Origin: an uncultured Gammaproteobacteria bacterium | Lineage (GTDB): Bacteria; Pseudomonadota; Gammaproteobacteria; JABCZS01 | Reading direction: 5' to 3' | Assembly (NCBI GenBank): GCA_963848305.1 | Contig: CAWKDC010000001.1 | Coordinates: 160,001 to 224,000, forward strand | DNA length: 64,000 nucleotides | Shown: piece after piece, positions 32,702 through 55,431 of the stretch | Layout of the letters: each line of letters opens with the position of its first letter | How positions within the stretch are numbered: position 1 is the stretch's first letter | Program-made: the position numbers and the translations under genes | The notes under the pieces: generated by a model | Databases searched by the model: none | Seen by the model: the letters and a program-made list of their open reading frames with translations, nothing else | What the model was told of the DNA's origin: nothing

Positions 32702-32810
32702 GCGCGCTTTCAGCGCTCACCTTGTTCTTTTACACGAGACCTAGGGTTACGATGCGCGCAGCGCATCTAACCCTAGGCTAAATGCTTAAAGGCCTCCGGC
32801 CTTTAACAGC
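32702..32810. repeat. Palindromic REP/REPIN-like element homologous to the tnpA flanks; partial copies at ~33176-33235, ~33664-33718, ~34255-34285, ~34790-34815
   Basis: GCGCTTTCAGCGCTC...CCTAGGGTTACGATGCG...CGCATCTAACCCTAGGCTAAATGCTTAAAGGCC-tcc-GGCCTT aligns with 55268-55381. Confidence 0.88.
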
Positions 32811-32914
32811 CTGCAATGTTGCTGGATCATTCTATACCGCTGTGGTGGAACGTGTTGACAAGGCAGTGTCAGCCTGGTACTCTGCCAGGAAGTTGATATA
32901 CTTATTTGGAGGGC

Positions 32915-33214
32915 ATGATGGCTGATAAGAATTCACAAGATTTAATCGATCTGTGTTATGTGGGAAGCGCGGTGATTGGCGGCTTATTCGGTATCCTGGT
33001 GGGTATAGTGATTGCACAAAAATTGGGTGAATGCATCTATCACGATGATCCAACCAGTGGGGCAGATGACGTATCAACATTTTATGAATACACCCAAGCA
33101 GGCAAAGCATGGGTAGGCGGCAGCACAGGTGTCGGTGTGTTCATTGGTATTTTCTCAATGATGCTTTATAGAAATGATGCGCGCAGCGCATCTAACCTTA
33201 GGCTAAATGCCTAA
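32915..33214 (+). CDS. Array membrane protein, cassette 3 (C-tail replaced by REP sequence)
   Basis: Family motifs; after LYRN the frame runs into GATGCGCGCAGCGCATCTAACC. Confidence 0.82.
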   Translation: MMADKNSQDLIDLCYVGSAVIGGLFGILVGIVIAQKLGECIYHDDPTSGADDVSTFYEYTQAGKAWVGGSTGVGVFIGIFSMMLYRNDARSASNLRLNA

Positions 33215-33340
33215 AGGCCTCCGGCCTTTAACAGCCTGCAATGTTGCTGGGTCATTCTATACCGCTGTGTGGGGGGCGTGTTGACAAGGCAGTGTCAGCC
33301 CGGTACTCTGCTGGGAAGTGGATATACTTATTTGGAGGGC

Positions 33341-33682
33341 ATGATGGCTGATAAGAATTCACAAGATCCTGTTTATGTTCTGTGTTATATGATGAGCGTG
33401 CTTGTTTGTGGCATTATTGGTTCATTTGTGGGTTTAGCTATTGCGGCAGAGTTGGGTGAAACCATCCTTACCGATGACCCCGATGTCGACCTTTTTACTC
33501 AAGCAGGCAAAGCATGGGTAGGCGGCAGCACAGGTGTCGGTGTGCTCATGGGTATTTTGTTAGTGACGCTCTATAGAAATAAGGAACCGGTCAAGAGCAG
33601 GTTTACATCGTTATTTAGCTGGAAACCTGCTGCTACTGAACAACATATTGATACTCAAAAGGTTCTTTTACATGACACCTAG
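33341..33682 (+). CDS. Array membrane protein, cassette 4
   Basis: Family motifs; shortest loop; the TAG stop comes from the CCTAGGG of the repeat. Confidence 0.85.
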   Translation: MMADKNSQDPVYVLCYMMSVLVCGIIGSFVGLAIAAELGETILTDDPDVDLFTQAGKAWVGGSTGVGVLMGILLVTLYRNKEPVKSRFTSLFSWKPAATEQHIDTQKVLLHDT

Positions 33683-33822
33683 GGTTAGATGCCTAAAGGC
33701 CTCCGGCCTTTAACAGCCTGCAATGTTGCTGGGTCATTCTATACCGCTGTGTGGGGGGCATGTTGACAAGGCAGTGTCAGCCCGGTACTCTGGTAGGAAG
33801 TGGATATACTTATTTGGAGGGC

Positions 33823-34230
33823 ATGATGGCTAATGAGAATTCGCAAGAAGTTGACGCTCTGTATTATTTGGGAAGCGCGGTGATTTACGGCTTATTAGGT
33901 ATGCTGGTGGGCATGGTGATTGCACGTGAATTGGGTGAATGTATCTACCACGATGATCCAAGCAGTGGGGCAGATGACGTATCAACATTTCATGCAGGCG
34001 ACCATGCGGGTGATGATGGTAGTGATGCGTATTATGAATACACCCAAGCAGGCAAGGCATGGGTATGGGGCAGCACAGGTGTCGGTGTGTTCATTGGTAT
34101 TTTGTCAATGATGCTCTATAGAAATAGTGCGGCGATCAAGAGCACGTTCACATCATTTTTTGGCTTCAATACTTCCCAATCACAACCTGTGCCATCACCA
34201 AACCTACCTAACCCCTATAATAATCTATAG
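33823..34230 (+). CDS. Array membrane protein, cassette 5
   Basis: Family motifs; loop expanded by HAGDHAGDDGSDAY. Confidence 0.85.
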   Translation: MMANENSQEVDALYYLGSAVIYGLLGMLVGMVIARELGECIYHDDPSSGADDVSTFHAGDHAGDDGSDAYYEYTQAGKAWVWGSTGVGVFIGILSMMLYRNSAAIKSTFTSFFGFNTSQSQPVPSPNLPNPYNNL

Positions 34231-34395
34231 TATGCCTTTGAAGGATAAAATGTCTGGAGGCCAAGGCCTCCGGCCTTTAACAGCCTGCAATGTTGCTGGG
34301 TCATTCTATACCGTGGCGGAGGTGTGGCATCTGTTGACAGGAGGATGGCAAGCTGGTACTCTCGTAGGCAGTGGATATACTTATTTGGAGGCATC

Positions 34396-52998: not shown

Positions 52999-53455
52999 TC
53001 GATTGGTTGTCTTTTTCATTATTATTGCGGTGCTTTCTCTCGATGTCTTGACAAAGCGTTGGGTCAGTCATGCGTTTTATTTTGGCGAAATCGTACCGAT
53101 CTTTCCAGGGTTTAATTTGACGCTTGCACATAACACAGGCGCAGCGTTTAGTTTTCTGGCAGATGGCGCGGGTTGGCAACGTGTTTTGCTGTCTGCTGTC
53201 GCAGTGATTGTCACCCTAGTTTTTTCTGTGTGGCTGTATCGTACGCCAGCATCTGATCGCGTGACAACTATGGGTCTATCGTTGATCATTGCGGGCGCCA
53301 TCGGCAATTTGATTGATCGATTGTGGTACGGCTATGTGGTCGATTTTCTCGATGTTTATGTGAGCATTTATCACTGGCCTGCGTTTAATGTGGCGGATTC
53401 AGCAATTTGTATAGGTGTGGGTTTTCTGCTGCTGGAGGTCTTTCGTCGTGACTAA
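52991..53455 (+). CDS. lspA: Lipoprotein signal peptidase II
   Basis: [29 protein letters not shown]. Confidence 0.95.
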
Positions 53456-54398
53456 TGCACAAATCATCCTTGCCAACCCCCGTGGCTTCTGTGCCGGCGT
53501 TGATCGTGCTGTCGATATTGTCGAACGTGCGCTGGAATTATTAGATTGCACAATTTATGTGCGTCATGAAATTGTTCACAATCGTTATGTTGTTGAAGAT
53601 CTTCAACGCAAAGGTGTGATTTTCGTGAATGAATTGTGCGATGTGCCTGATGGCGGCACAGTTGTTTTTTCTGCCCATGGCGTTGCTGCAAGTGTGCATG
53701 AAGAAGCTAAGCGTCGCAATCTCACGGTGTTTGATGCGACTTGCCCTTTGGTGACGAAAGTTCACATGGAAGTGATACGTGCTGCCAAAGAAAGCCATGA
53801 ATGCATTTTAATCGGTCATCGTGGCCATCCTGAAGTCATTGGCACGATGGGGCAATATCATCATCCTGATCGCAGCATTTACTTGGTTGAAACGCTTGAA
53901 GATGCTGAAACCATTGCGGTGGATGATCCCACCCGTTTAAGTTTTGTGACGCAGACGACATTGTCGATTGATGAAACCAAAATGATCATTGCAACCCTTA
54001 TGCGCCGTTTCCCATTGATTCAGGGCCTGAAGCGTGATGACATTTGTTATGCCACGCAAAATCGTCAGAATGCCGTACGTGAATTGGCAAAGTCTGTGGA
54101 TGTGGTATTGGTTGTCGGTTCGCCTAACAGCTCGAACTCAAATCGATTGCGCGAATTGGCTGAATCGCTCTGCGGTCGTGCGTATTTGCTCGATTCCGCT
54201 GATTCAGTATTGCCCGAATGGATTGCTGGTGCAAAAGCCATTGGCTTGACCGCTGGCGCTTCAGCACCTGAAGTGCTGTTGCAACAGGTGATTGTGCGTT
54301 TGAAAGCATTAGGTGCAGGGAATGTCGTTGAGATGGCTGAACCGAGGGAAGACATTGTCTTTCCATTGCCGAAGTTGTTGCGGGAATTAGAAAAATGA
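53448..54398 (+). CDS. ispH: 4-hydroxy-3-methylbut-2-enyl diphosphate reductase
   Basis: [42 protein letters not shown]. Confidence 0.96.
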
Positions 54399-54428
54399 TG
54401 GAAAGACGATAAAATTGCGCGTCGATGA

Positions 54429-54671
54429 TGAGGTGTGCGCATTCAAGGCCGCAAGGCCTTTAAACATTTGGCATAGGGTGAGGTGTACGCATCTAAGGCC
54501 GCAAGGCCTTTAAGCATTTGGCATAGGGTGAGGTGTATGCATTAAGGCCGCAAGGCCTTTAAGCATTTAGCCTAGGGTTAGATGTGCCCCGGCGAAAGCC
54601 GGGGCGCATCGTAACCCTAGGAAATGTATGGGAGAGTGTTCTGAGCACTGAAAGTGCGAAAGACCTATTGC
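54429..54671. repeat. Left REP array: three ~50-bp tandem units plus a nested hairpin
   Basis: TGAGGTGT..GCAT..AAGGCC-GCAA-GGCCTTTAA.CATTT.GC.TAGGG three times, then CCTAGGGTTA...CCCCGGC-GAAA-GCCGGGG...TAACCCTAGG. Confidence 0.9.
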
Positions 54672-54791
54672 ATAAATCAATGAATCTAGATATTCTGCTT
54701 CACGATTTCAGCTCGGTGAAAGATGCGTATATGGCATCGTAACACTAAGTTAAAAGCGCGAATAAAAATAATAATTAAAAAAGGAATGATC

Positions 54792-55256
54792 ATGTCTCAA
54801 TCATTATCTCAAGTATGGGTGCACGTTATTTTCTCTACAAAAAATCGATATCCTTATTTAAAAGATCCTAACATACGCGAAAGAGTATATGAATATATAG
54901 TCGCAATATGCCAAAATTTACAGTGTAACGTCATTGCAATAAATGGTGTTGAAGATCATGTGCATTTACTCGCAGGTCTACATAAAAATATATCATTATG
55001 TGATCTTGTTGAAAAAATAAAAAAATCTTCTTCTAAATGGATAAAAGGAATTGGTATACATCACAACCATTTAAACAAATTTTATTGGCAGAGCGGTTAC
55101 GGTGCATTTAGTGTGAGTCAATCGAACCTGGAAATTGTTAGAAAATATATAGTGAATCAAGCTGAGCATCATAAGAAACAAAGTTTTCAAGACGAATATA
55201 GGGCTTTCTTGATTAAATATGATATTGCCTACAAAGAAGAATATGTTTGGAAATAA
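54792..55256 (+). CDS. tnpA: IS200/IS605-family Y1 HUH transposase (TnpA/RAYT-like)
   Basis: MSQSLSQVWVHVIFSTKNR, HUH motif DHVHLL, WQSGYGAFSVS, catalytic Tyr in YIVNQAEHH; visibly AT-richer than its neighbours. Confidence 0.92.
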   Translation: MSQSLSQVWVHVIFSTKNRYPYLKDPNIRERVYEYIVAICQNLQCNVIAINGVEDHVHLLAGLHKNISLCDLVEKIKKSSSKWIKGIGIHHNHLNKFYWQSGYGAFSVSQSNLEIVRKYIVNQAEHHKKQSFQDEYRAFLIKYDIAYKEEYVWK

Positions 55257-55257
55257 G

Positions 55258-55431
55258 CAATAGTTTCGCACTTTCAGTGCTCAAAACATTCTCTCATACA
55301 TTTCCTAGGGTTACGATACGCCCCGGCTTTCGCCGGGACGCATCTAACCCTAGGCTAAATGCTTAAAGGCCTTGCGGCCTTAGATGCATACACCTCACCC
55401 TAGGCTAAATGCTTAAAGGCCTTGCGGCCTT
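55258..55431. repeat. Right REP array (inverted copy, two tandem units)
   Basis: GCACTTTCAGTGCTC...CCTAGGGTTACGAT...ATCTAACCCTAGGCTAAATGCTTAAAGGCCTTGCGGCCTT, with the last unit repeated. Confidence 0.9.

Follow-up and report, generated by a model that had tools for sequence, protein, structure and literature searches.

The stretch of DNA analysed here (the window) spans 64,000 nucleotides (nt), positions 160,001 to 224,000 of contig C1, in the genome of an uncultured gammaproteobacterium. That genome, called G000 below, comprises 1.89 Mb in four contigs at 46% G+C; G001 and G002 are genomes of the same genus, and positions given without a contig are those of the window. Between folC and a dedD-like gene for a SPOR-domain protein, the window carries an array of six paralogous small genes, cas0 to cas5. 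The junctions of this array contain whole or partial copies of a palindromic repeat made of three hairpins (HP1, HP2 and HP3), which resembles the repetitive extragenic palindromes (REPs) of other bacteria. Copies of the same repeat flank tnpA, a gene for a Y1 HUH transposase located 20 kb from the array. Our analysis indicates that the array probably arose between folC and dedD through a tandem segmental duplication peculiar to this lineage, in which a REP copy was amplified passively and was not the driver. The genes of the array and those that bound it are as follows.

29240–30556, plus strand: folC, Mur-ligase-type folylpolyglutamate synthase (Pfam Mur_ligase_M and Mur_ligase_C).
30517–30900, plus strand: cas0, the first unit, a small membrane-protein gene overlapping the 3′ end of folC, recognised as an open reading frame (ORF) and by alignment with the other five units.
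32242–32326, plus strand: leader of cas1, consisting of a folC 3′-end pseudo-fragment, a GATATACTTA box and GAGG.
32327–32692, plus strand: cas1, 121 aa.
32915–33214, plus strand: cas2, 99 aa, truncated.
33341–33682, plus strand: cas3, 113 aa.
33823–34230, plus strand: cas4, 135 aa, with the longest variable loop.
34396–34764, plus strand: cas5, 122 aa.
34827–35447, plus strand: dedD-like SPOR-domain gene (Pfam SPOR, 2.8e-12), the native right neighbour of folC.

The origin of the array is recorded most clearly in its leaders. Every leader is a copy of the 3′ end of folC (source from ~30400) joined to a promoter-like box of the kind found before dedD. The leader of unit 5, from GGGTCATTCTATACC on, agrees with the folC coding sequence upstream of cas0 at all but one of ~150 nt, and the C-terminal motif of folC also ends folC in both G001 and G002. 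Further 5′, the junction reads T-A-C-N-V-A-G-S-F-Y-T in the folC frame, where the differences from folC in V-A-G are synonymous. Where 0.04 occurrences of the box GATATACTTA would be expected, the window has seven, of which six stand in the leaders, one apiece, and the seventh precedes dedD; thus each unit carried a copy of the dedD promoter-like box along. A promoter scan called the promoter-like site TTGTCA-17-TATACT before dedD (34827–34855) and did not call the TTGACA-17-TACTCT of the leaders.

The borders of the unit are equally distinctive. A point inside folC marks the beginning of each unit and the sixth nucleotide past HP3 its end, and the resulting join reads ...GGCCTT TAACAG/CCTGCAATG..., the slash marking the breakpoint. 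This one chimeric join, in which HP3 and TAACAG are fused to the interior of folC, is present at all four intact internal junctions. Of the native flanking sequences, the right continuation, TTTAAACAG/TCCAC..., persists solely behind the last unit and the left side, ...GACAC/TGTATGG, solely in folC, with ACA as the microhomology common to both sides. The join therefore fuses sequences that lie apart in the unduplicated state, whose native continuations persist on the cas0/folC side and on the dedD side of the array. A folC pseudo-fragment and the same join in each unit are the signature of one segmental duplication that was later expanded by homology. Indeed, the array has the marks of a tandem segmental duplication: its units lie head to tail, they share one novel join, and a relative, G001, has an unduplicated arrangement in which dedD follows folC directly across a spacer of ~70 nt containing GATATACT and GGAGG. 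In G002 the folC–dedD site holds instead an unannotated minus-strand ORF, LysR-like by reading alone.

The folC gene itself differs at its end. After the conserved AEVW motif, its frame (30406–30556) stays open for ~30 codons and extends into the beginning of cas0, and folC of G001 stops ~7 codons after the homologous motif, SEVY. The greater length past this motif indicates that the origin of the array altered the C-terminus of FolC.

The junctions that follow cas1 to cas5 contain the repeat in different states of completeness.

32693–32810, plus strand: J1, a complete three-hairpin REP-like element with HP1 at 32704–32718, HP2 at 32740–32777 and HP3 at 32789–32803, after which TAACAG leads to the join with the folC-derived leader.
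33176–33228, plus strand: J2, a REP remnant with the inner HP2 stem, the HP2 right arm, the linker and HP3.
33662–33710, plus strand: J3, a REP remnant with the spacer, the HP2 left arm (33678–33687) and HP3 (33696–33710), HP1 and the interior of HP2 being deleted.
34255–34277, plus strand: J4, HP3 alone (34263–34277), with GGAGGCC before it.
34789–34811, plus strand: J5, HP3 alone (34797–34811), after which come the native TTTAAACAGTCCAC and the promoter-like site of dedD.

In the complete element, HP1 is GCRCTTTCAGYGCTC, HP2 is CCTAGGGTTACGATGCG...CGCATCTAACCCTAGG, and HP3 has the form AGGCC-loop-GGCCT. Module for module, J1 can be aligned to the right flank of tnpA (55257–55385) and to the left flank (54555–54672) read as its reverse complement; the three-way alignment has 71 invariant columns. 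Folded as single-stranded DNA (ssDNA), J1 and the tnpA right flank form the same three hairpins (z = −6.7 and −7.6, with 0 of 200 shuffles as good). The full element is present at one of the five junctions, and HP3 at all five. The window has five copies of the small hairpin AAGGCCTCCGGCCTT with its loop TCC, where 0.01 would be expected, and all of them lie at junctions (32789, 33214, 33696, 34263 and 34797). The 60 nt that run from it into the next leader are 92–100% identical at four junctions; the fifth, J5, which lies before dedD, departs after TTTAA(A)CAG. Much of what the first-pass annotation had described from the letters of the window is upheld by these comparisons, namely the modular alignment of the junction with the right flank of tnpA, the common sequence by which four junctions lead into the next leader, and the presence of shorter versions of the element at the other junctions. 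Its picture is amended in that the element has three hairpins rather than two, HP1 having been missed, that the array has six units rather than five, cas0 having emerged from self-comparison of the genome and alignment, and that the shorter versions are deletion derivatives of a J1-like element.

This derivation is shown by the way in which the remnants nest within J1. In J2, a deletion between AGTGCG and GATGCG (from after AGAAAT to GATGCGCGC of HP2) has removed the stretch that reaches from the cas tail into the middle of HP2, and J4 and J5 keep only HP3 with about 12 nt of its 5′ flank. Moreover, the loop TCC and its flanks are the same at all five junctions, and of the 44 small-hairpin matches in the genome only one other has this loop; HP3 of the other genomic copies has loops such as TTGC, TAC, TGC and TTT. 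J2 to J5 are accordingly read as nested deletion derivatives, with the repeat decaying at four of the five junctions. Parts of the repeat have also become coding sequence. Because of the deletion in J2, HP2 and the linker of the REP supply the last ~12 codons of cas2 together with its stop (33176–33214), and the stop codon of cas3 is the TAG within the left arm of HP2, CCTAGGG (33678–33682). For the C-terminal tail of cas4 and cas5 (CCTACCTAACCCCTA), a similar origin from the HP2 right arm was considered and the similarity found too weak to claim.

Junction and leader together are the best conserved part of the unit, with a windowed identity of 0.92–0.96 that exceeds that of the coding parts. 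HP3 may have been kept as an mRNA 3′ hairpin; a terminator scan did not call it an intrinsic terminator, because it has no T-run. At J4 (34255–34277) and J5 (34789–34811), the GGAGGCC that precedes AAGGCCTCCGGCCTT permits an alternative 8-bp hairpin (CTGGAGGCC..GGCCTCCGG) that competes with HP3 and might be the trace of a template switch at a hairpin.

The gene whose flanks the junctions resemble is arranged as follows.

54420–54672, minus strand: tnpA left flank, one full three-hairpin element in reversed orientation and two extra half-units (HP2 right arm and HP3).
54786–55256, plus strand: tnpA, Y1 HUH transposase, 156 aa (PF01797, E = 4.9e-29, 101 bits).
55257–55431, plus strand: tnpA right flank, one full three-hairpin element and one half-unit.

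The two flanks are inverted repeats, since the reverse complement of the left aligns with the right. The best solved relative of the protein is the ISHp608 TnpA (PDB search, 3.1e-6), and the same search gave no Escherichia coli RAYT (REP-associated tyrosine transposase) structure at E ≤ 1. In the alignment with ISHp608 TnpA, the HVH of tnpA falls on the HUH motif (HIH), and the Tyr in RKYIVNQ stands opposite VKQYIENQ, the segment that we take to hold the catalytic Tyr. Among NCBIfam models, tnpA passes that for IS200 (77.2 bits, cut-off 55) and fails that for REP_Tyr_transpos (32.8 bits, cut-off 80). It is the single strong match in G000, and self-blast shows no second copy of the gene. Homologues at ~50% identity are widespread in metagenome-assembled genomes (MAGs) of several phyla, the closest named ones (~50–54%) being in Pyrinomonadaceae, Verrucomicrobiota and Planctomycetota MAGs. 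Among related genomes, G001 and G005 have one match each (58% and 71% identity), and both genes lie between inverted elements that repeat the three-hairpin design, with stems particular to each species. The location of tnpA is not syntenic: the ±1.5 kb around the homologues in G001, G002, G005 and G020 contain none of the genes that neighbour it in the window, such as ispH and a patatin-like gene. The genome also contains a second, weak match to PF01797 (Y1_Tnp; 35 bits) at C1:53363–53617, in an open frame of 222 aa that is a different gene.

Beyond the array and tnpA, the repeat forms a family of its own, each member being a composite of ~115 nt. A regular expression for HP1 followed by HP2 gave 30 matches in the genome, three of which were dropped by eye (two unrelated, one partial), leaving 27 full copies, 26 of them distinct, at about 14 loci. 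The copies are solitary, arranged as inverted doublets, or gathered in tandem clusters (C1:384.4–385.6k, C1:1382k, C3:142k and C3:196–198k). Classical REPs reach hundreds of copies per genome, and this family is low by comparison. In the alignment of the 27 copies, stems start with CCTAGGG or CCCAGGG, GCRC and AGGCC, and compensatory changes are found in all three hairpins: A-T in 10 copies against G-C in 15 in HP1, T-A in 9 against C-G in 17 and A-T in 9 against G-C in 16 in HP2, and A-T in 21 against C-G in 5 in HP3. Half-units of 50–60 nt, each consisting of the HP2 right arm, the linker, HP3 and about 16 nt, also form tandem arrays, with two extra half-units to the left of tnpA (54420–54560), one to its right (55381–55431), six at C1:1381986–1382369 and two at C3:142880–143000.

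The repeat also accompanies the gene in other genomes. The HP1-spacer-HP2 pattern was present in all three relatives with a tnpA homologue (4, 6 and 7 matches) and in neither of the two without one, in a comparison of five relatives that are few and kin; a reversed control pattern gave 0. Given this co-occurrence, the low-copy, structured nature of the family and the inverted flanks of tnpA, it is reasonable to regard gene and repeat as a RAYT-type pair by context, more exactly one of the TIRYT/TIRtron type, and as a new member of that kind. The cognate relation between repeat and gene would thus account for the resemblance of the junctions to the tnpA flanks.

The proteins encoded in the array constitute an orphan family. 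In the alignment of the six units, two hydrophobic stretches surround a variable loop and 28 columns are invariant; the other units are 44–54% identical to cas0. No Pfam family (cas1 to cas5) or NCBIfam family (cas1 and cas4) scored above threshold, and the sub-threshold hits of cas units to Rhomboid (18.6 bits) and FtsX (19.8 bits) were disregarded. When G000 and 40 related genomes, the two of the same genus included, were searched with the cassette protein, all seven matches lay in G000, six of them in the array, and none of the 40 relatives had a homologue. A search of 5.8 billion proteins gave four matches, of which two belong to the contig of the window and the other two to short contigs, and a look-up of cas1 in the ESM Atlas gave no usable match. 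In a collection of metagenome contigs that perhaps leaves the window's own genome outside, the cassette protein alignment gave 218 pattern matches, none upheld by tblastn, and the exact 28-nt junction pattern gave 0 matches. The seventh match in G000 is a distant single-copy paralogue of 143 aa at C1:579884–580315 (34% identity), which has a C-terminal GREPL motif also present in cas0. Its stop codon lies within a 20-nt piece that resembles, by eye and without an alignment, the HP2 right arm of the repeat copy at C3:98308.

Comparisons between the units bear on how the array has evolved. Synonymous divergence (dS) between units is 0.2–1.4, and the ratio of nonsynonymous to synonymous divergence (dN/dS) is 0.39–1.01, values that suggest an old array under relaxed or diversifying selection. 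The units are also mosaic. Units 0 and 5 have a common 5′ part, and the first ~150 nt of cas0, taken with its leader, show 1 mismatch to unit 5 in ~150 positions; units 4 and 5 share a 3′ part (97%), units 1 and 3 share a tail, and the leaders of units 1 and 2 are 98% alike. Such mosaicism would be the expected outcome of unequal exchange and conversion.

Taken together, these observations favor a simple history. The ancestral unit would have comprised the last ~110 nt of folC with the promoter-like box that stands before dedD in relatives, a small orphan gene whose protein has two hydrophobic segments, and one complete REP after its stop codon, together with 6 nt beyond. One illegitimate join, at the shared ACA, would then have fused the sequence 6 nt past HP3 to a point inside folC, creating HP3-TAACAG/CCTGCAATG. 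Unequal homologous exchange may have expanded the array to at least six units, with gene conversion producing their mosaic structure. The REP would have ridden along, HP1 and/or HP2 being lost later by internal deletion at four of the five junctions and the terminal, GC-rich HP3 being kept everywhere. Separately, the REP family would be the cognate low-copy repeat of the single-copy tnpA.

Several points weigh against this history. The order in which the REP came first and the duplication second would follow from the nested-deletion argument, and none of the relatives examined shows an intermediate state with one cas-REP unit. The high conservation of junction and leader could reflect selection on the junction, beyond conversion alone. 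The two hydrophobic stretches of the proteins are apparently transmembrane segments, as read from the alignment alone. In addition, sequencing reads from four soil or wetland runs, which cover the region only by short contigs at depth 2–5 with none spanning a whole unit, include one contig (run X2) that joins 34262, in the tail of unit 4, to 33214, in the leader of unit 3, across 51 shared nt at depth 4.25. Variation between strains, unequal crossover, circle formation and a chimeric assembly would each account for this joint. Finally, the first breakpoint lies only 6–7 nt beyond HP3, and the borders of two other duplications in the genome lie near REP elements (~20 nt at C1:495001 and 25 nt at C1:1524338). 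Together, these distances leave some room, if not much, for a causal role of the hairpin or of TnpA in the first illegitimate join.

The two other duplications differ in their layout. A 377-bp segment is present twice, at C1:495001–495377 and C1:497049–497425 (98% identity), and the two copies enclose 1.7 kb that contain two ORFs. The segment includes one complete REP, with HP1 about 20 nt from the left border, and a small ORF on the minus strand. At C1:1524153–1524338, a REPIN-like inverted doublet (HP3-HP2/HP2-HP3) ends 25 nt before a 1,061-bp tandem duplication (97%), with the REP outside the unit. In the genome as a whole, local direct repeats of 150 bp or more mark 38 regions, and 31 of them are without REP; the other seven overlap REP modules, and four of these are themselves REP clusters. 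Because most such regions are free of it, REP is not needed for duplication in this genome. Duplication borders within 30 nt of a REP number 36, and most of them are REP-to-REP matches; what is left is the focal array and C1:1524338, plus C1:495001 by eye, cases too few and too post hoc for a statistic on border enrichment, with blast borders that are fuzzy.

One alternative is that the hairpin or TnpA seeded the first duplication. In that case HP3 would have stalled replication or been nicked 3′ of its stem, and the end would have been joined to folC through microhomology, with homologous growth thereafter. We consider this unlikely. The closeness of the breakpoint to HP3, the common ACA and the two further borders speak for it, as does the fact that the family's own half-unit tandem arrays begin right after HP3 (in the tnpA flanks, at C1:1381986–1382369 and at C3:142.8k). 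Work on IS608 and on the E. coli TnpA-REP system reportedly found that Y1 enzymes cut ssDNA a few nt from the feet of hairpins, which we also count in its favor. A precedent exists in Salmonella, where a REP is reported to lie at the join-point of a tandem chromosomal duplication (Shyamala, Schneider & Ames 1990, as cited in PMC7661048). Here, however, the join fuses a point 6 nt past one REP to the interior of folC, with no REP partner. The Salmonella join is said to have arisen by REP-to-REP recombination. Moreover, the seeded duplication is built on three post-hoc cases with fuzzy borders, and breakpoints that spared both the small gene and dedD had only ~180 nt in which to fall, which makes a distance of 6 nt from the end of a REP not improbable by chance. 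The REP at C1:1524338 may have inserted later, being outside the repeated unit; most duplication regions have no REP at all; and nothing points to TnpA in particular over any stable hairpin. A wider proposal, that HP3, nicked by a Y1 enzyme or stalling forks, repeatedly sets duplication borders (at the folC array, the 377-bp segment at C1:495k/497k, the 1.06-kb duplication at C1:1524k and the half-unit arrays), appears slightly more doubtful still. If true, it would mean that a RAYT/TIRYT-type system gives rise to gene arrays; in the present case these would hold an orphan family of membrane proteins, each unit having brought its own copy of the promoter.

The first-pass annotation had gone further and proposed that a domesticated HUH nuclease acting in trans may seed or drive the duplication and shuffling of the cassettes, with the REP taking the place of the attC site of an integron. 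On an integron-like reading, TnpA would excise, capture and reshuffle them at a folded site. Like attC cassettes, the small genes stand head to tail, each followed by a folded, imperfect palindrome, here derived from the REP. The units are mosaic in order and content, the X2 joint is one that a circle would also give, and the HP2-like piece overlapping the stop codon of the distant paralogue fits as well. In contrast to an integron, the array has no adjacent integrase and no attI, tnpA is 20 kb off, and the site is complete at one junction and degenerate at the other four. Its cassettes are all paralogues that carry a fragment of a housekeeping gene, so that it was a single duplication join, rather than the site, that fixed their borders. 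The array is absent from three relatives in which both tnpA and the repeat occur, and 31 of the 38 regions of local duplication in the genome are free of the repeat. The X2 joint, with 51 nt common to both sides at a depth of 4, is explained equally by a crossover, a strain variant or an assembly chimera. The integron analogy thus fails on three tested features, namely an adjacent recombinase, an intact site at each boundary and an independent origin of the cassettes; it is largely refuted by the folC fragments, and we regard it as very improbable. We find it just as hard to credit that REPs transposed independently into each spacer of a pre-existing array as preferred targets. REP-type elements commonly land just downstream of genes, and this family has been mobile enough to reach about 14 loci. 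Independent insertions, however, would differ in loop, flank and pattern of completeness, whereas the five junctions agree in position, in the loop of HP3 (TCC) and in the flank on its 3′ side (TAACAG), and their remnants are nested subsets of J1. Other elements of the earlier proposal have fared better. The junction repeat does belong to a family that flanks a Y1 HUH gene, as the inverted flanks, the PF01797 match and the co-occurrence in relatives attest. That gene was rightly called solitary in having no close second copy, if not in being the genome's one match to PF01797. The genome-wide count that had been suggested shows a low-copy repeat, which is at odds with one part of the scenario named as refuting the proposal, an abundant and randomly placed REP; its other part, the passive co-duplication of one copy, fits best and agrees with the tandem segmental duplication that we favor.

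The surroundings of the array include one gene outside the repeat unit.

30963–32111, minus strand: AAA_14/DUF4143 ATPase gene (Pfam DUF4143, 2e-32; AAA_14, 1.2e-20).

This gene separates cas0 from cas1. The segment that contains it (~30901–32241) took the place of the junction after cas0, and the upstream part of the cas1 leader was lost to its insertion. The homologue of the ATPase in G001 is at another locus. Just upstream of the gene, at 32125–32185, is a 30-nt inverted repeat whose arms are 87% complementary and 1 nt apart. It is unique in G000 and matches loci in G002 (94%) and G005 (84%); it is therefore probably part of the control region of the ATPase gene. By Pfam, the neighbours of the array are folC, the ATPase gene, dedD and cvpA, and no recombinase adjoins it. 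We take the order folC-dedD-cvpA to be proteobacterial-looking.

It is useful to set the gene-repeat pair beside known systems. The RAYT/REP (REPIN) systems of Pseudomonas and enterobacteria, reportedly described by Nunvar in 2010, Bertels and Rainey in 2011 and Ton-Hoang in 2012, resemble it in having a single-copy Y1 HUH gene, inverted flanking palindromic repeats, and extragenic copies that are dispersed, paired in doublets and clustered. In contrast to these systems, tnpA scores as IS200 and not as RAYT in NCBIfam and lacks the RAYT-specific signature, its surroundings within ±1.5 kb are not conserved between species of the genus, and the repeat is a three-hairpin composite of ~115 nt in about 27 copies, not a REP of 20–40 nt. 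It also differs from IS200/IS605 elements, being present in one copy and not as several near-identical whole elements. The end hairpins of IS200/IS605 lie on the same strand and are not inverted repeats, unlike the flanks of tnpA. In copy number, the 18-mer motif that flanks tnpA, with about 12–13 copies in G000, falls in the range of RAYT groups 1 and 4, for which Bertels et al. 2017 (PMC5581495) give 12 and 14 occurrences of the flanking motif. The GTAG (or CGTC) tetranucleotide tag that marks the end of a REP, according to Di Nocera et al. 2013 (PMC3733652), differs from what we find, as no conserved GTAG tag appears in the 27-copy alignment. The best descriptive fit is with the TIRYT/TIRtron elements of the same paper. 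These are RAYT-like Y1 genes with terminal inverted repeats (TIRs) that are unrelated to GTAG REPs, some of them self-complementary, and that form moderate families with dimers and clusters; here, too, inverted flanks without GTAG form a moderate family. This comparison is with the TIRYT/TIRtron class as a whole, which comprises four groups, and the conserved GGGGWSAS motif of some TIRs was not seen in the tnpA flanks. Our literature searches on RAYT/REPIN with tandem duplication and on REP join-points brought up no paper on a paralogue array with REP-derived junctions.

The array may be informative in several respects. It shows that a RAYT/REP-type repeat can reach every junction of a paralogue array without making it. 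The folC pseudo-fragment present in each unit serves as a marker that separates passive co-amplification from site-specific capture, and it can be used on similar claims. The locus also documents a low-copy composite repeat of three hairpins that is tied to an IS200-like single-copy Y1 gene and whose stems co-vary across species, as well as the recruitment of REP sequence as coding sequence or stop codon in two units. If the hairpin did set the first breakpoint, the locus would be a tractable one for testing REP-promoted duplication. Overall, the array documents an orphan family of small hydrophobic, apparently two-segment proteins that has grown to six diverging copies, each with a dedD promoter-like box.

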